A stretch of 64,000 nucleotides of DNA from a virus: the IMG/VR virus record IMGVR_UViG_3300033388_000874, positions 639-64,638 of that record; one strand, 5' to 3'. Both the position numbers and the translations under genes were made by a program. The notes beneath the pieces were generated by a model. That model was given only the letters and a program-made list of their open reading frames with translations, ran no database searches and had not been told where the DNA came from. Shown in pieces: positions 2,857 through 36,554 of this stretch. Each line of letters starts with the position of its first letter. Positions within the stretch are counted from its first letter, which is position 1.

Positions 2857-2897
2857 AGACCCCGGTCGCATCCCAATGGTGCGGCTGGGGCTTTCTC
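2857..2897 (+). terminator. putative intrinsic terminator / attenuator after the capsid gene
   Basis: GACCCCGGtCGCA-tcccaatgg-TGCGgCTGGGG stem (about 10 bp with one bulge) followed by CTTTCTC; same position as Tphi in T7-like phages. Confidence 0.4.
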
Positions 2898-2910
2898 AAG
2901 GAGCAGTTCG

Positions 2911-3288
2911 GTGGCTAAGTCGTATGAGAATCTTGTGTTTGAGGCCCGTGAGATGTTGCAAGACACCGACTCGGTAACGCCTCGATACACTGACTCCACG
3001 CTACTGAATATCCTTAACCGGGGTTTACAAGACCTTTCGCGTATCCGCCCGGACATCACCTACACCCTTTTTACAGGCAATTCTCTGGAAGTCCCCGAGA
3101 TTGTCGAGACTGCCCCCGGCGCTGGACAGGTCATTTGGTCTGACCCCTTTGGCTTGGAGATGCAGTTCTATCCCACGATGCTTTCGTACCTTGTTGGACT
3201 GGCCGAGATCACTGACGACGAGTATAGTGAAGACGGCAGAGCAGCTTTGTTCATGCAAGCCTTCCACAACAACGCGATAGGTATTTAA
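2911..3288 (+). CDS. hypothetical virion protein (head-tail adaptor candidate)
   Basis: 125-aa ORF, GTG start 7 nt after AAGGAG; position between capsid and tail genes. Confidence 0.45.
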   Translation: MAKSYENLVFEAREMLQDTDSVTPRYTDSTLLNILNRGLQDLSRIRPDITYTLFTGNSLEVPEIVETAPGAGQVIWSDPFGLEMQFYPTMLSYLVGLAEITDDEYSEDGRAALFMQAFHNNAIGI

Positions 3289-19775: not shown

Positions 19776-22700
19776 TGTCAATCGCAGGTTTAGAGGATTA
19801 TCTGAATCGAGAGTTCGGTGAGCTAGACGAAGGAAGTCTGGAGCGCCAAACTGGTCGACGTGCAGATCGTCTTCTCGCAGAAGCACCAAGTTCAGCCTCC
19901 ACCACCGAAGTAGCGTCTGGTATCCCTGAGTGGAATCCGCCTGCTTCGGGTGGCGGTGGTCTTGACGACAATGCGGGACTCGGTGACGCAGCCAAGTTGT
20001 TCGCGGCTGGCAGTGTCGGTGTCGGTGAAGCTGTTGTTGGTGCTGGTGAGTATCTGGCGCGTCAGAATAAATTCACTCGCGGTACATTCGTTCAGGAAGG
20101 TCTAGGGGCTGCACGTAAAAGTATCGGCGGTTTCCGTGAGGCTATTATTGAGAGCGTCGACCCTGATGCAATGGATCGTGTTGGCCGTGAGTGGCTGAGT
20201 ACCGATCCGAGCAATACGATCTGGCAGGGTAGCCCTGTTGAGTTTGCGTCATCTGTTGGGATGAAGATGGCGCAGATGCTTCCATCCACACTCGCCACAC
20301 TTGCACCAGCAGCGGTATGGTTCCGTGGAGCGCAAGCCGGTAAAGCTCTTGCATACATGGGCGCGTCCGAAGCTGGCATCACAATGGGCAGCATCGCCAA
20401 TGGAATCTCAGATGAGATCGAGCAGACTCCCCACGAAGACCTAATGGCAGGGTCGCAGCGGTATAAAGTCATATACGGACAATTGGGTGACGAAGACGCT
20501 GCCAAAGACCAACTCATTACTGAGGCGCAGGGTGCAACACCAGCAGCCGCCGCCGCTTTCGTCGCTGCCATATCTATTACAGCCGGTCGCTATCTTGAAC
20601 CCGTGTTCCTCAAGACAGGTACACTCGGTCGATTCGGAGGCAAGGGTGGACTAGGAGCCGGTCAGCGAGTTGGGCGGGGCTTCCTTGCCGAAGCTGCACA
20701 GGAAGGCCCGCAGAGTGCAGGTGAGCAGCTTGCGACGAATATGTCGGCCAAGCTATACGATGAGAATAGGAACCTCTCAGAAGGCGTAGCAGAGGCTTCT
20801 GTTGAAGGTGCCATCATGGGTGGCCTGACAGGTGGTGCATTCACTGGAGCTATGGGCCAACGGCCTACAGCCCCGCCACCCCCACCCGTTGTCGAGGAAG
20901 GAGGCCAACAAGGTCTACCGGGTTTCGGCCCACAGGTTCGTGAGGAAGGGTTCGGTATTGAGCCGGAAGGCTATCGCGGCGATCCCAACCCACAGGAACA
21001 GTACGTTCCAGACACAGGTATGGGACTCCAGACAGAGTTCTTCCCTGATCCGGGTACGACGGAAGCCGTCATGGTTCCCGAGGAACAAGCACCGGGACAA
21101 GGAGTCCTGCCGCTGGGCATTGCTGGTACTGAGTCGTTGGCCGAGCGCGGCCCCGATCACCGTACACTCCAAGAGGGTGACATCGTACCTGACGAGATGG
21201 ATCAGCCTACCGCTGAGCCTGTCGAGGATATTCAGGCGCAGCTTGCAGACATGAAGGGTGCAAGTGGCCGCAGTGCGGTATACGTGTCACCAGCACAACG
21301 CAACGACAACTACCAGATTCCGAAGGGTGCGGTAGAAATCCGTAACTTCGATGGCAAGGGCGGTACGCTCATTGCTAAGAACCAAGCCGCTGCCGATCAT
21401 GCGCGCAAGATACGTGCTAGTGGTGGATCGATGCAGGCCATTATCGGTGAACTGACGATGGCTGGCGCAGGCAAACCAAACGTCAGAGCCGGATACGCAG
21501 TGCAGTTGGTTGATGAATCTGGCGCAGTGGCACGTGAGTCTTTGGTACGTACGAAGGCAGAGGCCACCGCGCTTGAGAAGCAGTGGGCACCGGACGGTAC
21601 GACACGTGTGTTGTCAGGGCCAGAAGCACTAGCGCGGCGTGGCGCGAAGATCGAGGAGGAGCAGCTTAACCTACGTACGGAAGACCCGGCACTGGTTGAC
21701 GAAGCAACACCTGATATGTTCGCACCGGGTCAGGCACCAACGCTCACAGCCGCCGAGAACCAGTCGGAGGGCGGTGCGTTCCAAGTCCAAATGAAAGACG
21801 ATGCCGGTAACGAGATCGTCACTGAAACTTTCGACACAGTGGAGGAGGCAGAAGCACGGGCAGATGAACTCGCTAAAGACTTTCCAGATGGGAACATTAC
21901 ATCCAAGCAACTGCGGGTGGAGGCAGCACCCGATAAGGCTGGCCTCTCTACTACGAAGCGTGTACCGAAGAAGGTACTTAAGGGGCCACCTGAAGGCCCG
22001 CCGACAGGTATGGATAAGCCAGAAGTGTCGACAGAACGTACACGTCCCCCGGAAGTGTCGATAGCACCGGAAGAATTCGACGAGACACAATCCGTCAAGG
22101 ACATTGAAAACCTCCCAGACTTCAGGGCACATTACAGCGTTATCACCGAGGAAGCGCAGCCGAACAAAACGACGAAGGTTGTGGAGACACGTGAGTCCCG
22201 CAAGTTCACCAGTAGGCAGCAGGCCCGATCATACGCAACACGTATGACGAATAAGGCAAGGGCGGCTGCACCAAAAGACTTCGATGTTACGGAAGGCAAG
22301 GTTGACGCGGTTGAATCGCCCGAGCTTGAGGGCCAGTTCGCGTCGGCGTTGCAGTCGAGAGCGGATCGTAAGCAGGAGACAACTGCCGAGGAAGAAGGCA
22401 AGAAGGTCGGCCACTTCATAAGCGATAAAGCCGTCTCCACCACTGGGGAAGGAGTTACCGACACGAGCAGGCAACTGACTGCTGAGTATCGTGCGCAGAA
22501 CACCAGCCCATCACAGAAGGTTCAATTCATACGTCGTGAACGTGCGTCGGTGTTACGCCGTCGTGCGCCGGTCAAGAATGTTGGTGCCGCCAAAGCGACC
22601 ACCGTCAAGAAAGGCGGCGGTACACAAGAGACAGAGACTAAGGCGCTGACCTATGAAACGGTAAGCGGCGAGGAGACAACCGAACAAACTACCAAGCGGA

Positions 22701-25700
22701 AAGCGGTAGTCAAGGAAGCTAACACACGTTTGAGATTCGCTTTGAATCGTGCGAAGAAATTCCTCGACCGATTCGATACTACCGGTGAGTACGGAACGTA
22801 CGTTGCAGATAATACGAATGTGGATGGCACATTGACACAAGCGGCCCGTGATTTCATGGCGGCTCGTGCGGTACTACACGAACTCGCCGACTTCGCAAAT
22901 TCAGCACTCGCATCTGGAAACACGAGCAACGCCCACGCAAAGATGGCGAAGAAGGTTGCTATCGCATTGGAGCGGGTGAAGCTCGGCAAGATGACTCCGC
23001 AGTTGTTCGCGAAAGAGTTTAGCGCGGTCGCCGAGTCAACAGACTATAAGATGTTGAGGAACGTACCTGCTCGCTTCAAAGAGTCTGCCACGGTGCGCGA
23101 CAAGAAGATCACCAAGAGCAACAACGAACGCCACAATGCGAACGTGCGTCAGGATCGCTTGGAGAATAAGTGGGGTAAGGACAAGATTTGGACAGAGAAT
23201 GTCGGCCCCATATTCCGTAAGTTCAGCGACGCAATGCTATCAGGTATGCGGTTGCAGTCGGGTGCGATAACCCCCTACTACAACCCAACGCTGCTTGAGA
23301 TTGAGGGGCTGCGATATGCTCTACGCACGTTCCGCAAGATGACCCAGCGGTATCCGACGAGTGAGTTCTACACACCTGTTAAGGAACAGCTTGAGTACTA
23401 CGGCTTTGAGTTCGATGCCAGTGGTGATGTCATCGTACAAGATTTTAGCCCGAGCGAGAACTTGCTGGGTTCCAGCTTCATCGAGAAGCATGGTGTATCG
23501 AAGAAAGCTGCTGGGGAAATTAGTGGTACTGGCCCAGTTCGCACAGATGTAATCGTGACACCTGATTCGACAGCGGTGCGCGGTGCGCGTGACAAGGCTG
23601 ATAAGGTTAAAGCGGTCAGTGGAATCAACATGGCGAACGCCTTGCTTGAGAAATTACAGGGTATGGTTTATACCGCGAAAGTCACAATTAACGGTATAAA
23701 GCGTCAGGAGCAGCGATTCATACGCGGGCTTAGAAAGCTCGGCGCATGGACAGATACGTCTCCCGGCATGGGAAAGATCAGTTTTGGTGGGTATGCGAGC
23801 AGAACGTACCGTCTGGTTGGCCCGAGGTTGGACAATCGCACCATGAGTAAGGGGGAGGCCAAGGGTGCAATTGAGCATTTGAAGCGTTTTGCGATGCCTC
23901 GCGAATTAGCGGCATTGGCCCGTTCGCAGCAGAATGTTGACGCTGCCAGTAACATCGACGAATTCATAGATACTAACAGCACGGAGTTCTTTTTAGAAGA
24001 ATTGAAACTCGAAGAAAATTCACCAGCCCTTGACAATGCTGCCAGTACTGTGGGTGACATTATCCGCGACAAGTACTCGGCGGCGTCGATCAACGATGTA
24101 CTCGATGCCATCATTGAGCAATTACCATCTGACCACTTCTATCATCGGTTAGCAGTGAAACTTCGTTCGCTGGGTATGGCGGATGTGACGTTGCAGTACG
24201 ACTGGACTGGTTCAAAATTCCACGGTAAGAAACGCAACCATCTCGGCATGTTTGATCCGAGTACCAACCGTGCGTATCTGAACCGGCGCAAGATGCTCGA
24301 TGACATGGATGTGATGTCAGGTAGCAAGGCTATCCACACCATGCTCCATGAAATGCTCCACGCTGCCACGCACAATGCGTTGGCTCATAGCTGGCCCCTA
24401 CGCAACCAGATGTTCCAGATACGTGCTGCCGCTTACCACCAGTGGGTGAAGGCAAACGGCAAGAAGAACCTACCTATAGGTTTGCGGCTTACTGATAGTC
24501 AGGGCAATCCCGCACCTGTTGATGAATTCGTTGTGGAAGTGTTTTCCGATGAAAACTTGCAGGATCACCTTCGCAACACGCCTGTAGAATTGGAAGGGTC
24601 GGCAACTGGCCTATCCGCCGCGTGGTCGAAGATCAAAGACGTACTTATCGAGATTCTGGGATGGGGTAACGTACCCGAAGTCCGTAACCTACTCGACGGA
24701 TTCATGGCTACCGCCGATGAAGTATTTTCTCAGGCAGGGGTTGCGCGTGAAGGTTCGGACGTACTCAATCTTGAATTGTATGACACACAACTTGGGAACG
24801 TCGCACGATCTGCATGGGATAAGATCAGCCAGCACAGCAGCATTGTCCAACGTGTGAAAGATGCAGGTGGGTCAGTTTTACGTAATATCCAGACGCTTGA
24901 GCAGTTCGTCGAGAACTACGCCAAGGAGTTCGTGGCAGATGGTAAGTCGATGCTCCAGCAGTACAGTGATGCATTCAACGCTCGTAACGCGAGAGCTAGT
25001 GAGTACATGAACGTGCCACAGGCTATCTCGCAGCAGTGGACGAAGTTGGAAGAAACTGACCCTGCCGGTGCGCTGGAACTTAGTCGCATCGGTACGGTAG
25101 CATCATTGAATCGTGTCACTGCCGCTGAAGCACCTGAAGACGGTAACGCGACTCACGCTGACATACACGCCCGTTACAATGCGTTATCAGCCGAAGCGAA
25201 GAAGGTCTACCAAGCCACGACAAAATACTATACCGAAGCATCCCAGCGCGAGCATATGTTCCTGCTCCAGTCGGCACTGCGCGGTATTATGACGAACAAG
25301 CAAGGTATCGGCATTGACCTCGACGTATTCGAGTCGAAGTTCAACGTCGCAGAGCTTGGCAAGATCGAGTCACGTGAAGACTTATCCAACATGATCGGGG
25401 AATACGTACCCGAAGAAGCGCGGTCTGAGATGATCGACCAGCTTTACAGAATGTCTGTCGTTCCACGGCAGCAGAAAGGCGACTACTTCCCTGCCATGCG
25501 TTACGGGGATGAGGTCGTGTATGCAGAGAAGTTAGCGCAGGAACAAATTTTTGAGGATCGCAAAGAAGCATGGGGTGTTCGCGCAGAGATAGCTGCCACA
25601 GACCCGACGCTTGACGTACAGATGTTGAAGACCGACGATGGAATGTGGGCCGTACGTACGTTCGAGCGCGAGTTTGTTATGGCTGAATCAGTGAGTGAGA

Positions 25701-27805
25701 TTGAGGAAGCTCACGCCCGGCTGGTACAGGAGTACGGAGCCGAGAATGTGTTCGACCCGCAGAAGCGTCGGAGCAAGCAGACCGATATCGATATCGGATC
25801 GAACCAAGCACTGAACAGCATTATCAAAACGCTAGACGGTAATCCCGCAGCGCAGGCAGCAATCAAAAACCTCTACCTTCGTAGTCTAAGCGAGGCTTCC
25901 TTCCGCAAGCACGAGATGAAGCGGAAGAACCGGCGCGGTCTGAACTATGACGTACAACACAGGAACCTTGCCGCCTACGCGAAGCAGGCTTCCTACTACA
26001 CTGCCCAGCTTGAGTTCGGCTGGAAGATGGCTGAATCCCTCAAGGGAATGGACGCTTTCGTGAGTCGCCGTCAGGCTGGCCCGAAAGACACGCCAACCCG
26101 TAAACTGCGAGCGATTGTCAATCACCTCCATGACCGAGATCAAATGTCCGTCGATCTTCCAGACATACAGCAGCTAGTTCGCAAGGGTGTCGAGTACACG
26201 CACTTCTTCATGCTTACGTCGCCGTCGTACTGGGCGATCAACGCCACACAGCCTTGGTTGGTGACAGCACCGACGATGGCTGGCCGTCATGGTTGGGGGC
26301 AGACAATCGCAGCACTGGGCGCGGTACAGAAGCTCATCAAGGCACCGCTGATCCAGCAGGCCGGAAGCTCCAAGGGTGGGTTCGCCGCGTTCTTCAAGGG
26401 CGGTAAGTCTAAGCTCGAAGATGCGTTTGATGTGATACACCAGTTGGAAACCCATATTAGAGAGAACGCGCCGTCGCAGGCGGATGAGTACATCGCCCTG
26501 CTTGAGACACTGCGTTCCAGACACATAATTGATATCAACGTCTTCACAGAGATGCGTGACCAAGCAGCCGGTAAGTCACAGAGCGCGGCTGATAAAACTA
26601 TTGACGCCTCACGTATCATGGCCCATCTGACCGAGGTCAATAACCGCGTTCTTACCGCCCTGTCAGCCTATCAGCTTGAGATCAATGCAGGCTCTACGGT
26701 TGAGGAAGCGACGAAGTACGCAGGTGACATGGTGTCGCAGACGCAGTTCAATTACTCCAGTGCTAACAAGCCGCCGCTGTTTCAGGCTGGTGGGCCGTTG
26801 GGTGGAGTCGCACCACTCATGTTCCAATTCATGCAGTGGCCTCAACATATGTATGCGCATCTCATCCGCAACTATCGCGGCATGGTTGACGCGGGCATTA
26901 TGGAGCGATCTGAAGCACGATCAGCGTTGCTCGGATTACTGGGAACACACGTTGCCGTTGGTGGCATGGTGGGTATGACGCTCCAGCCGATCAAATGGGC
27001 CATCGGCTTCACAATGATGGCGCTGGGCGATGACGACGAGCCGTACACATTTGCCAATGCGGTGAATGGTCGGACGGCGGATCGACTGATGACCGGAGCT
27101 ATGGACGACCTGTTTGGAACTACAGCAGCAACTTTCATCGCGAAGGGCATCCCCGCTGGCCTCGGCATCGACCTGTCCACTCGTATGAGTATGGGCACTG
27201 TCTATTTCGTGGACTTGCGCGGTGACACTGCCGAGAGCAACATCGGTAGCATCGTAGCCAGCTTCGGCGGTGCGACGCTGAACCAAGCCGTCAATCTGGC
27301 GCGGGGCATGGGGCGGATAGCTGAAGGTGACATAATGCGTGGTGTCGAGCAGATGAGTCCGAAGATTGCACGAGACTTCTTGCGGTCAATTCGGTACTAT
27401 AATGAAGGACTTGTGAATAATGCTGGTGATACAGTCATTCCAACGAGCGAGATGGGCTACGGCCAAATCGTTCCGCAGATACTCGGGTTTGCACCAACTG
27501 ATGTAGCCCAGTTCTACGAAGCGCAAAACGCCATCAAGGACGCAGAATCATTTGCACGTGACCGTAAGGAAGAATTATTGAAGCAGTTCCGACTGGCCGA
27601 GTCGGGTGAACGTCAGCAGGTTTTGAGCGAAGTACGGAGTTTTAATAAAGCGTTCCCTGTGGAACGCATTACATACTCGACGCTGCTATCGAACGTGAAA
27701 GGCAAGAAGGTACGCGAATCGAGATTCAGACGCTACGGAGCAAATATCGATGAGAAAAAAGCAAGGTTCTACAAAAGACACGGCGACCCCTTCCGCGAAG
27801 ACTAA
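19775..27805 (+). CDS. giant (2676 aa) virion/ejected multidomain protein with zincin-like HExxH motif (polyvalent-protein-like)
   Basis: single uninterrupted 8-kb ORF; 'SGSKAIHTMLHEMLHAATHNALAHSW' HExxH metallopeptidase-like signature in the middle; Gly-rich N-terminus, long charged segments; position just after other ejected-protein candidates. Confidence 0.55.
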   Translation: MSIAGLEDYLNREFGELDEGSLERQTGRRADRLLAEAPSSASTTEVASGIPEWNPPASGGGGLDDNAGLGDAAKLFAAGSVGVGEAVVGAGEYLARQNKFTRGTFVQEGLGAARKSIGGFREAIIESVDPDAMDRVGREWLSTDPSNTIWQGSPVEFASSVGMKMAQMLPSTLATLAPAAVWFRGAQAGKALAYMGASEAGITMGSIANGISDEIEQTPHEDLMAGSQRYKVIYGQLGDEDAAKDQLITEAQGATPAAAAAFVAAISITAGRYLEPVFLKTGTLGRFGGKGGLGAGQRVGRGFLAEAAQEGPQSAGEQLATNMSAKLYDENRNLSEGVAEASVEGAIMGGLTGGAFTGAMGQRPTAPPPPPVVEEGGQQGLPGFGPQVREEGFGIEPEGYRGDPNPQEQYVPDTGMGLQTEFFPDPGTTEAVMVPEEQAPGQGVLPLGIAGTESLAERGPDHRTLQEGDIVPDEMDQPTAEPVEDIQAQLADMKGASGRSAVYVSPAQRNDNYQIPKGAVEIRNFDGKGGTLIAKNQAAADHARKIRASGGSMQAIIGELTMAGAGKPNVRAGYAVQLVDESGAVARESLVRTKAEATALEKQWAPDGTTRVLSGPEALARRGAKIEEEQLNLRTEDPALVDEATPDMFAPGQAPTLTAAENQSEGGAFQVQMKDDAGNEIVTETFDTVEEAEARADELAKDFPDGNITSKQLRVEAAPDKAGLSTTKRVPKKVLKGPPEGPPTGMDKPEVSTERTRPPEVSIAPEEFDETQSVKDIENLPDFRAHYSVITEEAQPNKTTKVVETRESRKFTSRQQARSYATRMTNKARAAAPKDFDVTEGKVDAVESPELEGQFASALQSRADRKQETTAEEEGKKVGHFISDKAVSTTGEGVTDTSRQLTAEYRAQNTSPSQKVQFIRRERASVLRRRAPVKNVGAAKATTVKKGGGTQETETKALTYETVSGEETTEQTTKRKAVVKEANTRLRFALNRAKKFLDRFDTTGEYGTYVADNTNVDGTLTQAARDFMAARAVLHELADFANSALASGNTSNAHAKMAKKVAIALERVKLGKMTPQLFAKEFSAVAESTDYKMLRNVPARFKESATVRDKKITKSNNERHNANVRQDRLENKWGKDKIWTENVGPIFRKFSDAMLSGMRLQSGAITPYYNPTLLEIEGLRYALRTFRKMTQRYPTSEFYTPVKEQLEYYGFEFDASGDVIVQDFSPSENLLGSSFIEKHGVSKKAAGEISGTGPVRTDVIVTPDSTAVRGARDKADKVKAVSGINMANALLEKLQGMVYTAKVTINGIKRQEQRFIRGLRKLGAWTDTSPGMGKISFGGYASRTYRLVGPRLDNRTMSKGEAKGAIEHLKRFAMPRELAALARSQQNVDAASNIDEFIDTNSTEFFLEELKLEENSPALDNAASTVGDIIRDKYSAASINDVLDAIIEQLPSDHFYHRLAVKLRSLGMADVTLQYDWTGSKFHGKKRNHLGMFDPSTNRAYLNRRKMLDDMDVMSGSKAIHTMLHEMLHAATHNALAHSWPLRNQMFQIRAAAYHQWVKANGKKNLPIGLRLTDSQGNPAPVDEFVVEVFSDENLQDHLRNTPVELEGSATGLSAAWSKIKDVLIEILGWGNVPEVRNLLDGFMATADEVFSQAGVAREGSDVLNLELYDTQLGNVARSAWDKISQHSSIVQRVKDAGGSVLRNIQTLEQFVENYAKEFVADGKSMLQQYSDAFNARNARASEYMNVPQAISQQWTKLEETDPAGALELSRIGTVASLNRVTAAEAPEDGNATHADIHARYNALSAEAKKVYQATTKYYTEASQREHMFLLQSALRGIMTNKQGIGIDLDVFESKFNVAELGKIESREDLSNMIGEYVPEEARSEMIDQLYRMSVVPRQQKGDYFPAMRYGDEVVYAEKLAQEQIFEDRKEAWGVRAEIAATDPTLDVQMLKTDDGMWAVRTFEREFVMAESVSEIEEAHARLVQEYGAENVFDPQKRRSKQTDIDIGSNQALNSIIKTLDGNPAAQAAIKNLYLRSLSEASFRKHEMKRKNRRGLNYDVQHRNLAAYAKQASYYTAQLEFGWKMAESLKGMDAFVSRRQAGPKDTPTRKLRAIVNHLHDRDQMSVDLPDIQQLVRKGVEYTHFFMLTSPSYWAINATQPWLVTAPTMAGRHGWGQTIAALGAVQKLIKAPLIQQAGSSKGGFAAFFKGGKSKLEDAFDVIHQLETHIRENAPSQADEYIALLETLRSRHIIDINVFTEMRDQAAGKSQSAADKTIDASRIMAHLTEVNNRVLTALSAYQLEINAGSTVEEATKYAGDMVSQTQFNYSSANKPPLFQAGGPLGGVAPLMFQFMQWPQHMYAHLIRNYRGMVDAGIMERSEARSALLGLLGTHVAVGGMVGMTLQPIKWAIGFTMMALGDDDEPYTFANAVNGRTADRLMTGAMDDLFGTTAATFIAKGIPAGLGIDLSTRMSMGTVYFVDLRGDTAESNIGSIVASFGGATLNQAVNLARGMGRIAEGDIMRGVEQMSPKIARDFLRSIRYYNEGLVNNAGDTVIPTSEMGYGQIVPQILGFAPTDVAQFYEAQNAIKDAESFARDRKEELLKQFRLAESGERQQVLSEVRSFNKAFPVERITYSTLLSNVKGKKVRESRFRRYGANIDEKKARFYKRHGDPFRED

Positions 27806-29393: not shown

Positions 29394-29829
29394 CCAAGCA
29401 CTCTATGCTTTAGAAGAAGGCTTTAGTGGTTCAACGGGTCACAGCACGTCCACGCGGTCGCAGCTTGACAGCTTGGCCGCTGACGTGTGTTTCTACTACG
29501 GCACTGCCGTACCAAACATCCGGTTCATCAACACCCGAAGAAACACCCACGCAGCTTGGTTCGACCATGAGGTAGTTCTGAACAGAGCTAGGGAAGGTGC
29601 AAATGGTATGACGCTGCTGCACGAGTTGGCGCACTACTTAACTGATGAATTCTATACAGGTGTTGAGCATCACGGGCCAGAGTTCGTCGCGATCTACATG
29701 CACCTTCTAGATAGGTGGAAGTACCTACCCAATAAATGCTTCAGATTACTGGCAAAGCAAAACCGCCTCAAGATCGGGCGGCGCTACAGGCCCATCGCAT
29801 TTAGAACTGGAAGACGATCCGTAGATTAA
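29377..29829 (+). CDS. small HExxH zinc metallopeptidase-like protein (SprT/ImmA-like)
   Basis: ATG at 29377 overlapping the upstream stop region (track extends to 29323); 'GMTLLHELAHYLTDEFYTGVEHHGPEF' HExxH...H motif; the last 29 nt overlap the convergent OMP gene. Confidence 0.45.
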   Translation: MTVGSDQALYALEEGFSGSTGHSTSTRSQLDSLAADVCFYYGTAVPNIRFINTRRNTHAAWFDHEVVLNRAREGANGMTLLHELAHYLTDEFYTGVEHHGPEFVAIYMHLLDRWKYLPNKCFRLLAKQNRLKIGRRYRPIAFRTGRRSVD

Positions 29830-30301
29830 CGGAGTCAATGCCGGTGTTGCGCTCTGAACGCCCAGCAGTACTGTTGTGACCATCCACGTCAAGCTCAAGT
29901 ATATCCTTCCACCTAACGCCGAGGCGAAGGTCGTAGGCCAGATGCTCTGAAATGAGTCTTTCCGGTGCCTTGTCAAAATAGGCGACGCCGAGTGACAGGT
30001 AGGGGCGAAAGTCCTTGTCATCCCGCCAAAAGACGCGATACGCAATTACGTACCGGTCGTTGTATTTATCCTGCAAGCGATCCGAATCCACCCCACCTAC
30101 CCGCGAGTACGACGCAAACCAATGCAAGTCGTCGGTGATGACACTGAGTTCCTGTATGGTGGCGTCGGCAGCGTTGAATGTGCCGAAGCCTAAACCTAGC
30201 CCGACCTCGGCACTCTGCGCATTACGGCCCCACAAGAAGGCAACGACAAACGCAATGATCGCGAGTGTCGTAAGTATCTTGCCCTTCTTGAATCGATCCA
30301 C
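29801..30301 (-). CDS. small outer-membrane beta-barrel protein (Ail/OmpX/Lom/PagL-like moron)
   Basis: GTG at 30301 overlapping the upstream TAG (TAGTG); Sec signal peptide KKGKILTTLAIIAFVVAFLWGRNAQS|AEV; alternating amphipathic beta-strands; C-terminal '...LRIVFQF' aromatic terminal residue typical of OMP barrels. Confidence 0.55.
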   Translation of the reverse strand: MDRFKKGKILTTLAIIAFVVAFLWGRNAQSAEVGLGLGFGTFNAADATIQELSVITDDLHWFASYSRVGGVDSDRLQDKYNDRYVIAYRVFWRDDKDFRPYLSLGVAYFDKAPERLISEHLAYDLRLGVRWKDILELDVDGHNSTAGRSERNTGIDSVNLRIVFQF

Positions 30302-30648
30302 TAAGCGCCCATGCTCATAAAGCTGGCGGTGAACGTGAAGCCCGGTGTTGCAGTGCCGCCAAGTGTCCACTTGAGGCGAATCATAGGGCCGAATGGATTA
30401 GTAGCAGCGAGGATGGTATGGCGCATAGTAGTAACGCCGGTTAGCTGCGCTGGCGCTGGCAGGTCAAAGTACGTACCAGATGCGGGATCGAATTCTTGGA
30501 CGACTACATCCAGCGTCGGTAAAGTGCCCTGAACGGCAGTAATATCTACTACCAGTATCAAGTCCCGAGTGGGTAGCATAACTACTTCCGAGTTACCGCT
30601 GGCGAGGATTGCACCACTGTGTACTGTGGCATGTCTGGGTATATTCAT
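30301..30648 (-). CDS. hypothetical protein
   Basis: 115-aa ORF, beta-rich; translationally coupled to the OMP gene. Confidence 0.35.
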   Translation of the reverse strand: MNIPRHATVHSGAILASGNSEVVMLPTRDLILVVDITAVQGTLPTLDVVVQEFDPASGTYFDLPAPAQLTGVTTMRHTILAATNPFGPMIRLKWTLGGTATPGFTFTASFMSMGA

Positions 30649-30660
30649 TTCTAACTCCGG

Positions 30661-30918
30661 TTAAATTGGTCGGTTATTCGCGTTACGTTTATACGAGCGA
30701 TTGGTCTTGCGACTGACCACCCGCTGATTCGATTTGGCATTAGACCCACCGTTCGATAGAGCCTTCTTGTGATCTACCTCTTTTCCATCGCCCTTATGAA
30801 CTCGGCCCTCTCGCTCGGCGTCTTTACGAGCTTTATTCCGCATGGCTCGCTGTCGCTTGGCCTTTGCGGTGCCGTGGTACTTGTCATAGTAGGCTTTGGA
30901 TTGCTCTCGGGTTCCCAC
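30661..30918 (-). CDS. degenerate HNH-motif protein
   Basis: 'VDHKKALSNGGSNAKSNQRVVSRKTNRSYKR' aligns to the HNH core (v)DH..PLS.GGS...SNL...C..CNR.K with the Cys ligands replaced by Ser/Thr; Lys-rich N-terminus; the N-terminal 145 nt overlap 30774..31391 in another frame, so the true start may be internal. Confidence 0.4.
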   Translation of the reverse strand: MGTREQSKAYYDKYHGTAKAKRQRAMRNKARKDAEREGRVHKGDGKEVDHKKALSNGGSNAKSNQRVVSRKTNRSYKRNANNRPI

Positions 30919-31391
30919 TGCGTATCCTCAATAGTGTACTGATGGGGACTCTCGTCCTCGTAGATTGACTGCAAGTATCGCACAATCGGGGCCAGCGCAT
31001 CAATAGTTTCAGACACAGGTGCAGAAGGTGGGCGGTCATCGTTCAGCTTCCCCACTGCCCGAGCGTCGAGGATTATGGCAGAGCATGCCATTACTGAGGC
31101 GAGGTGTGGCACACCTGTTACGGGGTCAACCTCCTCGCCATTCTTCCACTTCTCCATGTGCCGCTCCATCGCATCCAGATAGATCGACGCACGAACACCA
31201 GCCACCCGCCAGTTGTATTTACCATACTTGAGAGCGCCTTCGAGGAATGCTAGGGCCATGAACGCCTTCGCCGTGCCGGGGATCAGATGCATCGGCAGCT
31301 TGGTTGAGCCGATTGCATCTTTCGGATTAGTAGGCTTCGTCTCTGCACGTTGCCGATGATTCGTAGCTAAGTCACTCATTACTTTGTCCAT
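30774..31391 (-). CDS. DUF5664-like protein (phage dATP/dGTP diphosphohydrolase N-terminal domain-like)
   Basis: 'KLPMHLIPGTAKAFMALAFLEGALKYGKYNWR...GVPHLASVMACSAIILDA' matches my recollection of the conserved K.P..L.P...A...A.V...GA.KYG..NW...H...H core; low-complexity C-terminal tail; not database-checked. Confidence 0.45.
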   Translation of the reverse strand: MDKVMSDLATNHRQRAETKPTNPKDAIGSTKLPMHLIPGTAKAFMALAFLEGALKYGKYNWRVAGVRASIYLDAMERHMEKWKNGEEVDPVTGVPHLASVMACSAIILDARAVGKLNDDRPPSAPVSETIDALAPIVRYLQSIYEDESPHQYTIEDTQWEPESNPKPTMTSTTAPQRPSDSEPCGIKLVKTPSERAEFIRAMEKR

Positions 31392-31638
31392 CTGCGACAG
31401 CGGCTAGTGCTTCTCTGGCCAAAAATTCTGCATCGCTAATGTGAAGTTGTCCGTCGCGGATTTGCTGGAACGCATCACGTAAGCGCACGTTCTCAGCCTC
31501 ATGCTCGTTGCTTGATTTCTGCCATGCTTTGATACGCTCGTCTTTCCGATGAACTGTAGCCTCAAGCTGTTCGATGCGTTGCTCTGCCCACTCTGGGTTC
31601 CAGAAACATTTATCTCCAAGTTTCGTTCTGTCACTCAT
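31372..31638 (-). CDS. small early protein, paralog family member 1 (RIEQLEA coiled-coil motif)
   Basis: 88 aa, starts 'MSD' in the conserved GGAGAAGACAGATGAGTGA junction; contains 'RIEQLEATV'. Confidence 0.45.
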   Translation of the reverse strand: MSDRTKLGDKCFWNPEWAEQRIEQLEATVHRKDERIKAWQKSSNEHEAENVRLRDAFQQIRDGQLHISDAEFLAREALAAVADGQSNE

Positions 31639-31849
31639 CTGTCTTCTCCAGTGCTGTCTTTAGCGCCGCGTGTTTAGAGCATAAGCTGGGCTGTGGGCAA
31701 CAAATATGACAGGCAACAACAGCCTCAAGTTGTTCGATGCGGTCTTGCTGCTCCTGTAGCGCGTTACGAATCTCTGAGCCAACGATCAGCGCATCATCCC
31801 TTCTGGACTTGATGCTTAGTTCTTTTGCCTTCGGTGTGTACTCACTCAT
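31631..31849 (-). CDS. small early protein, paralog family member 2 (RIEQLEA motif + Cys/His cluster)
   Basis: 72 aa 'MSEYTPK...RIEQLEAVVACHICCPQPSLCSKH...EKTDE*'; start and stop both lie in conserved junction repeats. Confidence 0.45.
   Translation of the reverse strand: MSEYTPKAKELSIKSRRDDALIVGSEIRNALQEQQDRIEQLEAVVACHICCPQPSLCSKHAALKTALEKTDE
31632..31649. repeat. conserved 18-bp gene-junction repeat, copy 1 (minus-strand reading GGAGAAGACAGATGAGTG)
   Basis: identical 18-mer CACTCATCTGTCTTCTCC. Confidence 0.6.
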
Positions 31850-32063
31850 CTGTCTTCTCCCCGTGACTGTCGGCTAGGCTGTCTAGTTGTTCCTCAAGTT
31901 CTTTGATATCAGCCTCAAGCCGCTCTATGCGCTTTAGAGCTTCGTTTGCCATTGCTCTATCTCCCGGCTCCATACCCATCGCGTCATCTGCGGTAGCCTG
32001 TAGCCAGTTTTTAATTGATGTCTGTTGAATCTGGTCATTGTATTGGTTTAGTTCATCACTCAT
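31842..32063 (-). CDS. small early protein, paralog family member 3 (RIERLEA motif)
   Basis: ATG at 32063 inside junction repeat copy 3 (track extends upstream to 32162 and overlaps the next gene); 'MSDELNQ...RIERLEADIKELEEQL...GEKTDE*'. Confidence 0.45.
   Translation of the reverse strand: MSDELNQYNDQIQQTSIKNWLQATADDAMGMEPGDRAMANEALKRIERLEADIKELEEQLDSLADSHGEKTDE
31843..31860. repeat. conserved 18-bp gene-junction repeat, copy 2
   Basis: identical 18-mer, 211 bp from copy 1. Confidence 0.6.
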
Positions 32064-32265
32064 CTGTCTTCTCCTCTGCGACTCTCCCAGAGTACGGATT
32101 GCCGTATGTCGCGTAATGGACTTGACACAGCAGTAAGTCCTCCCCCCATGCCCTTTCTTCACATCCTTTCATTCTACATTTCATTTCGATACGTGCCTCT
32201 TGTGTAGGTACATTGCCAAAACCGCACCCAGCCCACCGCCTGTTCCGATGGTCAGCGCGAACCAT
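32056..32265 (-). CDS. small Cys-rich (zinc-finger-like) early protein ending in KTDE
   Basis: 69 aa; Cys at 14, 30, 35, 47 plus His; C-terminal '...AEEKTDE*' inside the conserved junction. Confidence 0.4.
   Translation of the reverse strand: MVRADHRNRRWAGCGFGNVPTQEARIEMKCRMKGCEERAWGEDLLLCQVHYATYGNPYSGRVAEEKTDE
32057..32074. repeat. conserved 18-bp gene-junction repeat, copy 3
   Basis: identical 18-mer, 214 bp from copy 2. Confidence 0.6.
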
Positions 32266-32453
32266 AGTAGTTCGACGTTAATACCCTGAATCGCTTTGTG
32301 CGCGACGAGAGAGATAATGAATACCTCAGTCGTCGCCATTAGATAGCTGATCGGCATGATCCACTTGTAGTGCATGAAGGCGACGTTGCGCTGCTGGAAC
32401 GCCTTGAAGAACACGAATATAAAATACGCAACTCCTGCGATTAGCTCATTCAT
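32181..32453 (-). CDS. small integral membrane protein
   Basis: 90 aa with three hydrophobic helices; 8-nt overlap with the primase gene end. Confidence 0.4.
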   Translation of the reverse strand: MNELIAGVAYFIFVFFKAFQQRNVAFMHYKWIMPISYLMATTEVFIISLVAHKAIQGINVELLWFALTIGTGGGLGAVLAMYLHKRHVSK

Positions 32454-35343
32454 CCCTATCCACCATGTCTATGTTGAAGTCCAAGCACATTGCGCGGTTG
32501 GCCGCGTATTGTGTTGCCGCACCAAGCACGGTCTTGCGTTCTTTCATCCCTACCGTCTTCACGAAACTCGATGCGAGTTCACCGGTCAGACGGAGGCCGC
32601 GTGTTTTGTAAAGCCAACGAAGGAAGTCTGTTTTGTTGACTCGCATGATCCCTTGATCCTTACCTATCTGGTAGGTGATCTTCTTCAGGTTCGAGTAGTT
32701 GCCGACCAACTGCGGCTCGTACTTACCACCAGCACCGATGCGTAGGGTATCTGTCACCAGCTTCTCATGCATATGTTGCATCATGTAAGCGGTAATCAAT
32801 TCGTTGGGGTCGGTCGTGATGCGTGATTTATTCACCCTCACCCGGAGTTGGAGGAACTTGTCTTGCATGTACTTCCAGAGTTTTGGTATGTCGAACTCGG
32901 TCAGGCCCGATGCATTCGCGAGCATCGCACCGGCAATGACTGAGGTCATGGTCGCCACCCAAAAGCGTTCGGATGGCTCATCGTGGAAGTGTTCTTCCAC
33001 CTTACGCTTCACCTTCTCGACAGTACGGCGCACGAGCGGCAGGTTCTTAGCAAGGAAGCTGGCGTATTCCTCACCAGCCCTGCCGTAGTTACTCTGTAAC
33101 TCGCTCACCATACTGGCAATGCGCGGGTCTTTCTTAGGTCGCTCGTCGTCTCCAACAAACAACTCGAAGATTCTGTATACACCTGCGTCAGAAGCTCCAG
33201 TCATGTTCGCGGTGAGATCGAAGATTGATTCGTTCGACGTGACTACCAGCATCGTGTGCCAAGTCTGCGCGGCGATAGTCCGGGCGCTCCGGTCAGCGCG
33301 TTCCCTATCCTTACCCTGTGTAACTTGAAACACTGTCTGCGCGAAGTTTTTCATGGTCTGCTCGTCGCCGCGAGCTTCATCCCAATAGGCCGTAATGTTC
33401 TGGAGATAGGCCAACTTATTCTTCGTGGATGTGGGGGTGTCGTTCAACGTCATCCCGCCTAGCTTTGGGTTGCCCCAAGCAGCCAGTGCCGCTTCGAGCG
33501 ATAGCGATTTACCCGCACTCGTGTTGTTGGATACGACAGATATTACGCAGCCTGATTGATCCGTGAATTTGACCAGTGGCCCAGCGAACGCCGAGGCGAG
33601 CATGGCGATGATGTGATCGTGGCCCTGCTCAATGAGGAACGCTGAAGACTCTTTCCATTTTTCGGATAACCCAACAGGTGTGTAGTAGTCGGCGATACCT
33701 TTGTGTTTGTGGTTGGCAGTGACGACGCTGTTCTTGCTGCTGCCATCACTGAAGAATGCAGCGCCCCCGGATGCGAAGCCAACGATACTCTTGTTGTCCT
33801 TGTCATCCACTCGCTCGATCCAACCGAGTTGGTCAGCGGTATCAAGTACTGCGTTTTCCTCTTGTAGTTTCTGAAGCCAAGTAGCCATAAGATCAGTCCA
33901 ATGTGTTTTTTCGTTTGAGGTCAGGATCGCGCCGCGAGTACCCAACACTTCCCACGTTCTCGGACAGCCGTATGCAAGTCCACCGGGTATTTCAAACTGG
34001 ATAGCCTTGCCGGTTATCGACTTGGCTTCCATCATATACGTGTACTCGCCAGTATTCGCTGACCGTTGTGCTTGGATCAACCTCCACGTGCGCTGCAATA
34101 CTTTATCCCATCCCCATTCCTTTGCAACCTTGTCATACGTTTTGCGCTCGACTCCACCGTTCGCTGGGATAGGTCGCCAGTTGTCGGGGTAGTTGTGCTG
34201 CGGGGAGTTGACAGATTGCAGATGTGGTGTTCCCTTTTTGGGTACCTGTGTACCCAAATTAGGGTTTTGTGTCGTACCACTTTTAGGGTTTTGTGTTGTG
34301 GGTTTTACGTACGCAAGGGAGAGCGGGGTCTTTTGCTTCTTGCTCTTATAGATCGGGCAACCAACACAGAGGTTCGGGTGCCACCCCTCAAAAGTTGAGC
34401 AGAGTGTAGGGCCGGAAGTCTCCGCATTGAGCTTCTGCTGCCATTTCTCTTGCGTCGTTTCATAGTCGTATCCTATGTGTTTGGAACTCATTGGGTGGAC
34501 GAGCTTTTCGCCACCGTCAACGTACTTTAGTAACAGGAGTGTGGAGTTCCATTCCGGTTCATCCTGCTCAGCACCACCGGTCATAAAGATATGCTTCATC
34601 GCAGCGCAGTTGCGTACCAACTCTTTGCACGACGTTTGTCGTACATGGTTGCTACCCGAGAATTCGTTCGTTGCTTGCAGTCCACGAAGATGGGCGGGTA
34701 TTGCGTTATCACTCACGCCGGGAAGCATTTTCATTAACCCATCAGGTTCATACATTCGTGTGGGTTCGATGCCGAGGATTCTTACCGGCAGTGGTTCCTT
34801 CTTTCTGTTGTGAGTGCCCGGCGGTCGCAGTACGCGGGATGCATCGGCAGTACACATATGATCGGCGGGTAGGTCATGTGCTTGGCACAGTGCTTTGAAT
34901 GCGTTCGCGAGCGGTAGCCACTCGACCAGTGGTATCGCTTTGACCAGCGCCCAATAGACATGGACACCATTACCAGAGTGAACAATAGCGGTCGGCTTTG
35001 CGAACCCTGTCTTGGTTTGGAAGTCGTTCAGTGCGAGCATCGCGGTAGCCAAACTACCACCTGCTGATTTGAAATCGATGTCGAGCCAGAGTGCCTTCAG
35101 CTTATCGACGTTGGTGCGGGTGCGCTTTACACGCTCCTGTTTGAAATCGTTTAGGTGTATCTCTTTGAAGCTGGCGAGTGCAAAGAATACCGTCTCGCCT
35201 TTACTGTCCAGATGCAATGCAACTTTCGCCGCATCCTCATGGGTATGAACAGGTATCTGGCTGTACCCCTTCGGCTCCATCTTCTTCGCAATGCAAAGAA
35301 TACCGCTTGGCGTTACCAGTTCTAAGAATTGTTTTGTGTCCAC
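32446..35343 (-). CDS. bifunctional primase-polymerase (AEP) / SF3-like helicase
   Basis: 965 aa, GTG start after AAGGGG; AEP motifs 'ALWLDIDFK' (DxD), 'AIVHSGNGVHVYWAL' (sGxGxHxY), Cys cluster CSTFEGWHPNLCVGCP; C-terminal Walker A 'SNNTSAGKSLSLEAA' and D5/P4-type helicase region. Confidence 0.8.
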   Translation of the reverse strand: MDTKQFLELVTPSGILCIAKKMEPKGYSQIPVHTHEDAAKVALHLDSKGETVFFALASFKEIHLNDFKQERVKRTRTNVDKLKALWLDIDFKSAGGSLATAMLALNDFQTKTGFAKPTAIVHSGNGVHVYWALVKAIPLVEWLPLANAFKALCQAHDLPADHMCTADASRVLRPPGTHNRKKEPLPVRILGIEPTRMYEPDGLMKMLPGVSDNAIPAHLRGLQATNEFSGSNHVRQTSCKELVRNCAAMKHIFMTGGAEQDEPEWNSTLLLLKYVDGGEKLVHPMSSKHIGYDYETTQEKWQQKLNAETSGPTLCSTFEGWHPNLCVGCPIYKSKKQKTPLSLAYVKPTTQNPKSGTTQNPNLGTQVPKKGTPHLQSVNSPQHNYPDNWRPIPANGGVERKTYDKVAKEWGWDKVLQRTWRLIQAQRSANTGEYTYMMEAKSITGKAIQFEIPGGLAYGCPRTWEVLGTRGAILTSNEKTHWTDLMATWLQKLQEENAVLDTADQLGWIERVDDKDNKSIVGFASGGAAFFSDGSSKNSVVTANHKHKGIADYYTPVGLSEKWKESSAFLIEQGHDHIIAMLASAFAGPLVKFTDQSGCVISVVSNNTSAGKSLSLEAALAAWGNPKLGGMTLNDTPTSTKNKLAYLQNITAYWDEARGDEQTMKNFAQTVFQVTQGKDRERADRSARTIAAQTWHTMLVVTSNESIFDLTANMTGASDAGVYRIFELFVGDDERPKKDPRIASMVSELQSNYGRAGEEYASFLAKNLPLVRRTVEKVKRKVEEHFHDEPSERFWVATMTSVIAGAMLANASGLTEFDIPKLWKYMQDKFLQLRVRVNKSRITTDPNELITAYMMQHMHEKLVTDTLRIGAGGKYEPQLVGNYSNLKKITYQIGKDQGIMRVNKTDFLRWLYKTRGLRLTGELASSFVKTVGMKERKTVLGAATQYAANRAMCLDFNIDMVDRDE

Positions 35344-35408
35344 CGTCGCCCCTTAAAGTGAGGCCGGTAGCAACAACGAGGAAGAAGTTACTACCGGCCC
35401 ACAGTGCT

Positions 35409-36554
35409 TCAGTCGAGGATCGACGAAAGCATGTCCTCAATATCAGCATCCGCTCCGGGCGACTCGGGTTGGGGTGCTGGTACTTCGGACGGTGCAGCCA
35501 CCACCGTTGCCGGTGGAGTAGGGGGTTGCACGATTGTTGCAGCAGCGTGTTCTTCGATTGCTGCTGCACGAACTGGTTCAGGTGCCGGTGGAGCCACCAC
35601 AGGCGGCGGTGCTGCAACAACAACAGGCGCGGGGGCCGGTGCAGGTGCGGCAGGTGCTTCGGCTACAGCCTCAGAGTAATGCTGTTCTTCCGTGTTAGGT
35701 TTAGATGCTTCCGAGGGAGCCGGGGCAATGGCTTCTGCGTTTGCGGTCGACGCGCTACTAGCTGCATCACCATTACTTGCCGGGGTTCCCTCAGTTGCAT
35801 GCTCAGTCGACGTATCTAAGATGCGTCTGACCATATCGGAGTCGCGAAGCCCCTCAACTGTACTGAACTCGGTTTCCGACAGGAATCTCTCGCCCTTGAA
35901 GGTCAGCTTCGGATAGGCAACTGCCGTATCGAAACCTACCTTGGTTACGAGTACGTACACCGGCAGACCTTTCGGGCCGAGTACCTTCACTGCGTAATCC
36001 TTGAGCGGGTTGAGACTTGCCGGTGGGATTCTCAGGAGCATGACTGGAAGTTCGTCAAGAGCCTTCTGGCCCGTGGCAACTGCTTCAAGTTCATGCTCGA
36101 ACGTAACTGCGCAACGGCGAACGTCTTGACACGCACGTGTCTTGTTGCCTTGCTCAGTGATACGCGAACCCCATACGTTCATGGGACAGGACGCACAAGC
36201 CACGTTGACTGGATTCGGAACGTCAGCGTCAGGAGTGACACCGCTGGCCGACCAGCATTCTGGCTTGGACGAATCGCCCTCTTTGTACTTGCCCTCGTAG
36301 TATGTCTTCGATGGGCGTTCATTCGATTGAATCATTACGACACGGATGCTCTGAATGGCATCACCTTCAGTGTCGACGTATACCTGTTCCTCGCCGCCTT
36401 GACGGACACGCCATGTGCCACCGCGATACGAGATTACAGGGAAACCTGATTGGACGCCGCCAGCGAATTCTTTCGCTGCTGCTGCGTTTCCAACTGCGGC
36501 TTGTAAATGTGCGGGTAGCTGCGCACCGCCAGCGATCATCATATCTTGGGTCAT
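35409..36554 (-). CDS. hypothetical protein, possible ssDNA-binding protein
   Basis: 381 aa; globular N-terminal 270 aa, then Ala/Pro-rich linker and acidic C-terminal tail 'ESPGADADIEDMLSSILD', reminiscent of SSB/gp2.5 C-tails; location in the replication module. Confidence 0.35.
   Translation of the reverse strand: MTQDMMIAGGAQLPAHLQAAVGNAAAAKEFAGGVQSGFPVISYRGGTWRVRQGGEEQVYVDTEGDAIQSIRVVMIQSNERPSKTYYEGKYKEGDSSKPECWSASGVTPDADVPNPVNVACASCPMNVWGSRITEQGNKTRACQDVRRCAVTFEHELEAVATGQKALDELPVMLLRIPPASLNPLKDYAVKVLGPKGLPVYVLVTKVGFDTAVAYPKLTFKGERFLSETEFSTVEGLRDSDMVRRILDTSTEHATEGTPASNGDAASSASTANAEAIAPAPSEASKPNTEEQHYSEAVAEAPAAPAPAPAPVVVAAPPPVVAPPAPEPVRAAAIEEHAAATIVQPPTPPATVVAAPSEVPAPQPESPGADADIEDMLSSILD

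Follow-up and report, generated by a model that had tools for sequence, protein, structure and literature searches.

A repeated gene junction in a small-gene array of a metagenomic phage as a candidate translational-coupling site and joint for module exchange

Why should the same 18 nucleotides (nt) stand, without a single difference, at three successive gene joints whose flanking genes otherwise have little in common? The question is raised by a 64,000-nt stretch of viral DNA (positions 639 to 64,638 of IMG/VR record IMGVR_UViG_3300033388_000874), referred to as the window, in which four small genes, here called g1 to g4, lie in tandem on the minus strand. A sequence-only reading of the locus had suggested that the repeat is a translation-coupling cassette or a recombination linker, and we find that both are plausible and that probably both are true. 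Taken as a whole, the explanation that we hold to be moderately probable is that the array is a dispensable four-gene accessory insertion at the far end of a replication operon, that g2, g3 and g4 belong, as divergent members, to a large and unnamed family of small phage proteins, and that the repeat is a translational-coupling junction doubling as a short homology patch for the gain, loss and shuffling of cassettes.

The genes run on the minus strand in the order DUF927 primase-helicase (965 amino acids, aa), membrane protein (90 aa), g1, g2, g3, g4 and a dATP/dGTP-diphosphohydrolase-like gene (PF18909), here called g5. The array genes and their junctions are as follows.

32056..32184, minus strand: g1, 42-aa Cys/His mini-protein (MKCRMKGCEERAWGEDLLLCQVHY..AEEKTDE), its start overlapping the stop of the membrane protein gene (ATGA)
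32056..32074, minus strand: junction copy 1, g1 stop and g2 start, GGAGAAGACAGATGAGTGA, exact
31842..32063, minus strand: g2, 73-aa helical protein with RIERLEA, homologous to protein P0121
31842..31860, minus strand: junction copy 2, g2 stop and g3 start, GGAGAAGACAGATGAGTGA, exact
31631..31849, minus strand: g3, 72-aa protein (..QDRIEQLEAVV..)
31631..31649, minus strand: junction copy 3, g3 stop and g4 start, GGAGAAGACAGATGAGTGA, exact
31372..31638, minus strand: g4, 88-aa helical protein with RIEQLEA, homologous to protein P0122
31372..31379, minus strand: fourth, degenerate junction, g4 stop and start of the dGTP_diPhyd_N gene (g5), AAAGTAATGAGTGAC, with only ATGAGTGA kept

The window has exactly three copies of the 18-mer (CACTCATCTGTCTTCTCC), which lie at 31632, 31843 and 32057 with spacings of 211 and 214 nt, just as first described, and no other site was found in the 64 kb even with up to three mismatches. 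Three copies were reached in none of 100 dinucleotide-preserving shuffles. The shared stretch can be extended to 19 nt, GGAGAAGACAGATGAGTG(A), as the A that completes the TGA is also common to all copies, and the identity ends there, the base preceding GGAG being A, G and T, respectively. Each copy reads G GAG AAG ACA GAT GAG TGA on the minus strand and so encodes EKTDE and the stop of the upstream gene, while its +1 frame, ATG AGT GA., opens the downstream gene with MSD or MSE; this arrangement, with GGAG between the two, had been recognized in the sequence-only reading and can be read directly from the DNA. The lengths given there for the three downstream proteins stand at 88 and 72 aa, and the one put at about 74 aa is the 73-aa g2.

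This anatomy is that of a translational-coupling site. The GGAG ribosome site ends 7 nt upstream of the ATG in each copy, an optimal distance, and the 8-nt stop/start overlap (ATGAGTGA) fits an overlapping gene pair with a ribosome site 5-9 nt upstream. Within it, A-TGA-G-TGA places stops in both frames other than the start frame. The octamer ATGAGTGA has four occurrences in the window, all at the array locus, and the more general ATGAnTGA is found at five of the six consecutive junctions from the primase gene through g5. RNA folds around the junctions are not significant (z of -1.5 to +0.8 relative to shuffles), and the junction is predicted to be unpaired. Sigma-70-like promoter sites number zero in 29500-36500, against 5.0 expected from shuffles. 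Terminator-like matches show no excess (11 against 7.3 +/- 2.6 in shuffles); none on the coding strand lies inside the array, the single coding-strand match being in the upstream membrane protein gene. The only Rfam match was sub-threshold and at chance level, and no attC-like inverted repeats were found, one weak 13-nt inverted pair in 31300-32300 being unrelated to the junctions. From the overlap, the GGAG spacing and the lack of structure or an internal promoter, we infer coupling, as the sequence-only reading had proposed. The junction would encode the acidic tail and stop of one gene and supply the Shine-Dalgarno sequence and start of the next, and a terminating ribosome would be positioned to restart 5 nt back. 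As a separate observation, ATGANTGA is about two-fold enriched in the window as a whole, with 20 sites compared with 10.5 +/- 3.1 in shuffles, the cluster at 31372-32453 included.

Is the repeated sequence itself special? Exact scans for the 18-mer returned 6 loci in IMG/VR, 62 in a metagenome collection and 32 in a genome collection, and it is single-copy in all 100 of these public loci. In the genome collection (596 Gb, both strands) the 32 matches compare with about 17 expected by chance, an approximately two-fold excess. Among 77 distinct contexts, 65 open a reading frame (ORF) of at least 40 codons, in comparison with 44% of random ATGs in the same loci; the TGA is completed in 47, and many of the ORFs so opened are cellular genes. 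We therefore take the 18-mer to combine a generic good ribosome site with a common MSD/MSE N-terminus. A universal linker or special mobile sequence was rejected, because the public copies are single and mostly at ordinary gene starts; in this respect the linker proposal for the 18-mer did not hold. Those copies, standing where genes of unrelated phages and of cells begin, would be compatible with convergence, in which a good ribosome site and a common N-terminus arose three times independently. Yet the window has its three exact copies packed into 440 bp, with no others even when three mismatches are allowed, and more than one exact copy was seen in 0 of the 100 public loci, so that we regard convergence as highly improbable. 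Three exact copies within 440 bp still call for a local explanation. A pair of adjacent junctions, GGAAGAGACAGATGAGTGA and GGAGAAGACAGATGAGTGA, was also seen at 7600-7760 of L005 (IMGVR_UViG_3300046516_000574), an unrelated phage of 63% GC. They read EETDE-stop/MSE and EKTDE-stop/MSD and lie between 154-aa, 49-aa and 386-aa genes with a 357-aa ORF adjacent, in a neighborhood that we guess to be a recombination module.

The second feature shared by the array genes lies inside them. The RIE(Q/R)LEA motif that the sequence-only reading had noted in the three downstream proteins is present in all three and is conserved as DNA too, in 21-nt islands that are 86-95% identical and share an invariant CTTGAGGCT.

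31911..31931, minus strand: RIERLEA-coding island of g2, CGCATAGAGCGGCTTGAGGCT
31721..31741, minus strand: RIEQLEA-coding island of g3
31558..31578, minus strand: RIEQLEA-coding island of g4

Tandem Repeats Finder detected no tandem repeat at the array, because the units are too diverged outside the islands. Similarity among g2, g3 and g4 is indeed weak in pairwise comparison (BLASTP E of 3e-4 to 3e-3), with g2 and g3 showing weak full-length similarity, and Pfam and PHROGs gave no match for g1 to g4. Two of the genes have closer homologues elsewhere. A concatenated query against 5.8 billion proteins found P0121 for g2 (E 2.4e-14) and P0122 for g4 (E 1.2e-13). Codon differences are mostly synonymous, with 15 synonymous and 4 non-synonymous over 36 aligned codons for g2 and 16 and 9, respectively, for g4; judged by these homologues in other phage contigs, g2 and g4 are real genes. 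Back-translated patterns recovered no relatives of g4 in IMG/VR. In L114, GTGATGAGTGAC stands at both ends of the g4 homologue P0122 (positions 1-12 and 465-485), an allele that differs from that of the window and is uniform within the contig.

AlphaFold (AF2) models, a check suggested with the sequence-only reading and run for g3 and g4, gave confident two-helix predictions. The g3 model has helices at 6-50 and 58-71 (predicted local distance difference test, pLDDT, 84) and the g4 model at 15-61 and 67-85 (pLDDT 80). The motif sits in the first helix of each. A cluster in g3, CHICCPQPSLCSKH, falls at the turn between its two helices, and the C-terminus of g3, HAALKTALEKTDE, resembles the ARKALEGKDD of the family described below. 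Foldseek searches against BFVD and PDB returned nothing below E = 1. Most likely, the array encodes dispensable, fast-evolving accessory proteins on a coiled-coil scaffold.

Dispensability is suggested by a graded series of metagenomic relatives that the primase provides. We compared the four with 86-88% primase identity and enough flanking DNA (L007, L008, L235 and L236). In all four, the membrane protein gene is directly followed by the dGTP_diPhyd_N gene and the array is absent, with clean boundaries to the insertion. Alignment with L235, L007 and L236 holds to CACGTATC (about 32187) and picks up again at ACGAAG (about 31340), and L235 has just CCATGACTGAC between these points, which is itself an ATGAnTGA (ATGACTGA) junction.

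31341..32187, minus strand: insertion of about 847 nt relative to the closest relatives, comprising g1 to g4 and a new 13-codon N-terminus of the next gene
30774..31379, minus strand: g5, dATP/dGTP diphosphohydrolase-like gene, PF18909 E 1e-24, its first 13 codons (MSDLATNHRQRAE) new in comparison with L235, L007, L008 and L017

At the ATGAGTGA junction of the primase, a relative of 82% identity (L009/L010) has a different small coiled-coil gene right after the primase gene, joined by GATACAGATGAGTGAG. Given this gene and the absence of the whole array from the four relatives, small coiled-coil genes thus come and go at ATGAnTGA junctions in this lineage. Gain or loss in relatives, a check put forward with the sequence-only reading, therefore had a positive outcome for the array as a block. 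Cultured phages gave no relatives of the locus, of the small proteins or of the family described next. The primase reaches only 27% identity to cultured phages, namely Pseudomonas phage Rollin and the Rhizobium RHph_TM phages.

Are the array genes peculiar to this phage? A back-translated search with g2 led to L115, an IMG/VR contig of 43.6 kb with at least eight small genes in a row. These start with MMS.. and end with ..IAEVNDE-stop, and most have RIEKLE; one carries the ADDAMGMEP module of g2 and one is a Cys-rich mini-protein. The DNA holds nine junction copies (ATAGCAGAGGTGRATGATG) and seven RIEKLE islands (CGCATCGAGAAGCTAGA) in about 2.5 kb. We then scanned IMG/VR with the island pattern CGCATCGARMARCTNGAGGC, which has 16 fixed and three two-fold positions and a chance expectation of once per 3.4e10 positions. 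At least 119 loci were found, which is therefore far above chance. Among the matches listed, the matched ORFs are mostly of 60-140 aa and read M[ST]DDLVKRLR..AADRIEKLEAALR..ARKALEGKD[DE]-stop, with the start of the next gene inside ATGA[CG]TGA. The general family pattern, M[ST]D..RIE[KQ]LEA..ALEGKD[DE]-stop, describes small helical proteins encoded in tandem and joined by GGAG-N7-ATGAnTGA. In the same listed matches (1.04 Mb), 105 ATGAnTGA junctions are open in frame on both sides, the commonest being GCACTGGAGGGGAAAGATGACTGA, and several loci have two to five junctions.

The array genes fit this family to different degrees. Lying contiguously, g2, g3 and g4 have the tandem arrangement of the family. 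The tail ..A(R)KAL-E-x-x-D-[DE]-stop is a good fit to that of g3 (HAALKTALEKTDE) and a partial fit to those of g4 (AREALAAVADGQSNE) and g2 (SHGEKTDE), and the end of g3, GCACTGGAGAAGACAGATGAGTGAC, agrees with the canonical form at 21 of 25 positions. A profile hidden Markov model (HMM) of 32 family members was scored against each protein, with 200 shuffles per protein as the null.

g2: 17.4 bits, shuffle maximum 6.2
g3: 19.0 bits, shuffle maximum 3.9
g4: 17.3 bits, shuffle maximum 8.0
P0121: 38.4 bits, shuffle maximum 7.9

The alignment of P0121 to the model includes its ..AKAALGGED tail, and the chain from g2 through P0121 to the family is, on these homologies, an independent link to it. The paralogy of g2, g3 and g4 that had been proposed from the window is thereby supported by way of homologues elsewhere, while the direct pairwise similarity stays weak. 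In a phmmer search of 1.84 billion representatives with the fused three-unit protein P0123, 281 clusters were found at E <= 0.001, most of them proteins of 55-130 aa each matching one segment of the query. No Pfam or PHROG models were found for canonical family members, and the family has no match in about 50,000 GenBank phage records except one unannotated ORF of an uncultured virus. This is L237 (GenBank MW202496.1, Myoviridae sp. ctvy9321), where a 47-nt DNA match marks a family member at about 2890-3186 (..TDDLVKRLR..ADRIEQLEAALQ..ARAALGEKKDD-stop, followed by a ATGACTGA start) in a stretch without an annotated coding sequence in the public record. In the literature, no paper was found that contains RIEKLEA, RIEQLEA, DDLVKRLR or ALEGKDD, and the family, like its two-joint architecture, seems not to have been described before.

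Set against the family, the 19-nt repeat would be this phage's own allele of the junction GGAG-N7-ATGAnTGA. The family pre-start element is GGAG(G/A)(G/A)GA(A/C)AG, which the window junctions fit. Among the matches listed, the alleles GGAGGGGAAAG, GGAGAAGAAAG and GGAGAAGACAG were counted 22, 9 and 4 times, respectively, the last including the window, L216 and L229. This 11-nt allele of the window is seen again in L216, where the 19-mer has a single mismatch, and at two places in L229. Every lineage has a junction dialect to itself, with EKTDE/MS in the window, AEVNDE/MMS in L115, EKKDD/MT in L141 and EGKDD/MT in most loci. This variety bears on the idea that the 19-mer is the binding or cutting site of an RNA-binding factor that silences these genes together and so fixes the sequence. 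In T4, RegA is a translational repressor and RegB an endoribonuclease that cuts GGAG ribosome sites. The identity does cover spacer positions not obviously needed by coding or by the ribosome site, and the junction is predicted to be unstructured and accessible. However, related arrays use other junction alleles, and no further site within three mismatches exists in the 64-kb window, so that the regulon would consist of only three genes, and no RegA- or RegB-like protein was seen, although no search aimed at one was made; we consider such a factor very unlikely to explain the repeat.

How do the family genes relate to one another across loci? Mosaic boundaries coincide with the junction and the RIEKLEA island. 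In L115, two genes share a 150-nt duplicate (99% identity) that begins at the RIEKLE island, their N-terminal halves being unrelated, and other duplicates in this contig (88-96% identical) begin at the junction. Among the matches listed for the family loci, seven C-terminal modules each stand behind two to four unrelated N-terminal modules with the seam at RIEKLEA, while partners also change across the junction, for 6 of the 11 downstream genes that recur and for 10 of the 15 recurring upstream ones. The N-terminal module of g2 is homologous to those of P0121 and the L115 ORF at 3974, and in these three it precedes three different C-terminal modules. With neighbors re-paired at the junction and modules swapped at RIEKLEA, both islands are therefore module joints. 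In the listed matches, junctions of one locus resemble each other somewhat more than those of different loci, the differences (of 16) amounting to 8.05 within a locus and 9.39 between loci (reached in 1 of 2000 permutations). A shared boundary feature such as the linker model invokes is thus present across the wider family, and the earlier linker proposal gains comparative support from it; the evidence from the window itself is indirect and consists of whole-block presence or absence and of ATGAnTGA insertion sites.

Two further arrangements were seen in the family. P0124, P0127-P0129 and P0133 have a WDGH domain (PF25311) between two RIEKLEA copies, and RIEKLEA therefore also flanks inserted domains. 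P0123 and P0125 comprise two or three fused units and read ..ALEGK|MT.. through a former junction. Such multi-unit proteins, together with the UGA-C stop context and the upstream GGAG, could suggest that the junction is a programmed frameshift or bypass site at which some ribosomes make fused products. At the known +1 site of RF2 (prfB), a slippery codon precedes UGA and a Shine-Dalgarno-like element lies 3 nt upstream. Here the sequence is GAU GAG UGA C, in which GAG cannot re-pair on AGU in the +1 frame, and GGAG is 9 nt from the last sense codon, in contrast to 3 nt at the RF2 site. The fused forms are no evidence of frameshifting because a 1-nt deletion explains them. The frameshift or fusion reading was rejected on these grounds, and we give it almost no weight.

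What, then, could keep three junctions identical? One answer is in-situ tandem duplication of a single small gene whose interior diverged while selection kept the junction and RIEQLEA, with no role for recombination. The nearly constant unit spacing (211 and 214 bp), the like predicted topology of g3 and g4 (a long motif-bearing helix followed by a short C-terminal helix) and the weak full-length similarity between g2 and g3 all agree with it, as do the several overlapping constraints on the junction from codons, ribosome site and start. We nevertheless judge it unlikely. Both g2 and g4 have nearer homologues of their own in unrelated phage contigs and therefore separated long before the array formed. 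Duplication with constraint also does not predict three copies identical at 19 of 19 positions, as junctions that function for the same genes (the fourth junction, L009, L113 and L114) vary in the 11 nt ahead of the ATG and constraint alone therefore does not demand such identity. Lastly, the wider family re-assorts neighbors and half-genes exactly at the two islands.

We favor instead a junction that serves both coupling and exchange. The junction and the RIE[KQ]LEA island are the sole nucleotide identity between otherwise unrelated neighbors and would therefore act as short homology patches, where whole genes (at the junction) or half-genes (at RIEKLEA) could be inserted, deleted, fused and re-assorted. 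From the mosaics and the presence or absence of genes, we infer that exchange occurs by homology-guided recombination at the islands and not by islands surviving between independent recombinants. The identity of the three copies would then reflect recent descent or homogenization on top of coding and ribosome-site constraint. The sequence-only reading had taken perfect identity to imply selection on the nucleotide sequence itself, which is too strong, since descent or homogenization fits better. The junction encodes conserved termini in the family (..ALEGKDD-stop and MTD..), and part of its conservation is therefore ordinary coding constraint.

Several observations weigh against this explanation. 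The right-hand boundary of the insertion lies 39 nt past the last ATGAGTGA, and therefore that joint, at least, is no clean junction-to-junction crossover. Gain and loss at the locus, which had been raised as a check, are seen only as presence or absence of the whole block in the relatives compared, and no relative of this phage came to light in which the number of units differs. The HMM scores of g3 and g4 are partly circular, as they owe most to the motif by which the family members were collected, and the difference between junctions within and between loci is modest. In addition, a 19-nt match is short for homologous recombination, and among ten replication-operon proteins none was recognized as a single-strand annealing recombinase.

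The locus can be placed beside several known systems. Translational coupling through overlapping stop and start codons (ATGA, TAATG) is known from bacterial and phage operons, and the array resembles it in that the upstream stop overlaps the downstream start and the ribosome site lies inside the upstream coding sequence. Unlike classical cases, ATGAnTGA stops both alternative frames, 19 nt are exactly repeated, and the joint is a family trait with conserved termini. Of the systems described so far, the promoter-early stem-loop (PeSL) cassettes of T4-type phages come nearest; in them a repeated regulatory element mediates modular shuffling (Arbiol et al. 2010, PMC2839356; Comeau et al. 2014, PMC4122927). 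As with PeSLs, a short repeat lies between small, non-essential and mostly ORFan genes of a variable region, and would bring both an expression signal and homology for insertion, deletion and swapping between related phages. A PeSL, for which mini-circles have been demonstrated, is an intergenic sigma-70 promoter with a terminator hairpin. Here there is no intergenic space, promoter or hairpin, and the repeat is a translation signal within two overlapping coding frames and far shorter (19 nt). By analogy, the joint would work like a PeSL but is not one, as both defining features are lacking.

Conserved boundary ('linker') sequences have likewise been proposed for mosaic joints of lambdoid phages (as cited in PMC3029335, its refs 21 and 22). 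In mycobacteriophage Island3, a repeated C-terminal coding segment of ~50 bp flanks gene 68 (gp67/gp68) (PMC3029335), and the same source reports boundary sequences to be absent from most mosaic joints and assumes illegitimate recombination. Common to these cases and ours is a short gene-end homology that lets general recombination add or remove a whole gene with its neighbors intact, and, as in Island3, adjacent genes have a common C-terminus for which the repeated segment codes. Unlike those isolated cases, the joint described here is family-wide, has an 8-nt start/stop overlap and is accompanied by a second, internal joint at RIEKLEA. Integron cassettes also form arrays of small, promoter-less, exchangeable genes with a recurring joint. 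In contrast to integrons, attC-like inverted repeats are missing, no integrase was seen next to the genes, and the joint lies inside coding sequence, so that the resemblance would be functional at most.

For the window itself the finding is modest, being a dispensable four-gene insertion and a small divergent member of the family. Small fast-changing genes are abundant in phages, and their gain, expression and exchange are only partly understood. In this family the genes would carry their own joint, which gives expression through upstream coupling and is the site where genes and half-genes re-assort. If confirmed, this would be a second, mechanistically distinct case, after the T4 PeSLs, of a regulatory cassette driving modular shuffling. 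It would also give a named family to hundreds of metagenomic ORFans missed by current annotation (one of them in GenBank MW202496.1) and make the ATGAnTGA junction with the conserved acidic tail a signature for finding accessory arrays. A more far-reaching and doubtful possibility is that GGAG-N7-ATGAnTGA and the RIE[KQ]LEA island make up a cassette system with two joints, acting at the level of translation, by which a large clade of uncultivated phages diversifies its arrays of small accessory proteins. In that case the junction would be a portable, frame-tolerant coupling linker, offering a start along with stops in the two other frames, and a gene placed there would be expressed without its own promoter. 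Phage recombination could use the short homology to insert, delete, fuse and re-assort whole genes at the junction, and half-genes would be re-assorted at the internal island. Such a system, if real, would generate diversity among fast-evolving proteins of host interaction or anti-defence, and would stand beside PeSLs and integron cassettes as a counterpart acting through translation, not transcription.

Upstream of the array, a family A DNA polymerase, an exonuclease and a SNF2 helicase are encoded, and the array is therefore the distal end of a replication operon; early expression of its genes is plausible. Its immediate upstream neighbor is joined to the primase gene by ATGAATGA at 32446-32453.

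32181..32453, minus strand: membrane protein gene, 90 aa, phrog_7045 E 4e-11, with homologues in L007, L235, L236 and L017

The first gene of the array can be read in two ways. Most likely, g1 has 42 aa and starts at 32184, because a 69-aa ORF would overlap the membrane protein gene by 85 nt and because the gene calls of relatives (L235, L236 and L008) have an ATGA-coupled start of the next gene there. With this start, the cysteine pattern C-x15-C-x4-C-x11-C given in the sequence-only reading becomes C-x4-C-x11-C-x2-H. The 69-aa alternative (32056-32265, minus strand) overlaps the 3' end of the membrane protein gene in another frame, which is also open in L007, where the gene caller used it. 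It is probably a by-product of conserved DNA with no real extension of the gene.

Downstream, the window has an HNH-like basic ORF of 85 aa (30661-30918, minus strand; phrog_4590, MGTREQSKAYYDKYHG..NRPI) that is conserved in L015, L017 and L018. The diphosphohydrolase-like gene of the window and of L008 is without the stop present at the ATGGGTAA junction of L017 and runs 145 nt into this ORF in a different frame, an overlap that could be overprinting or a mis-set gene end. On the strand opposite to the replication operon, an ORF of 2676 aa (19775-27805, plus strand) has counterparts in the relatives that carry an LPD39 (large polyvalent protein-associated) domain.

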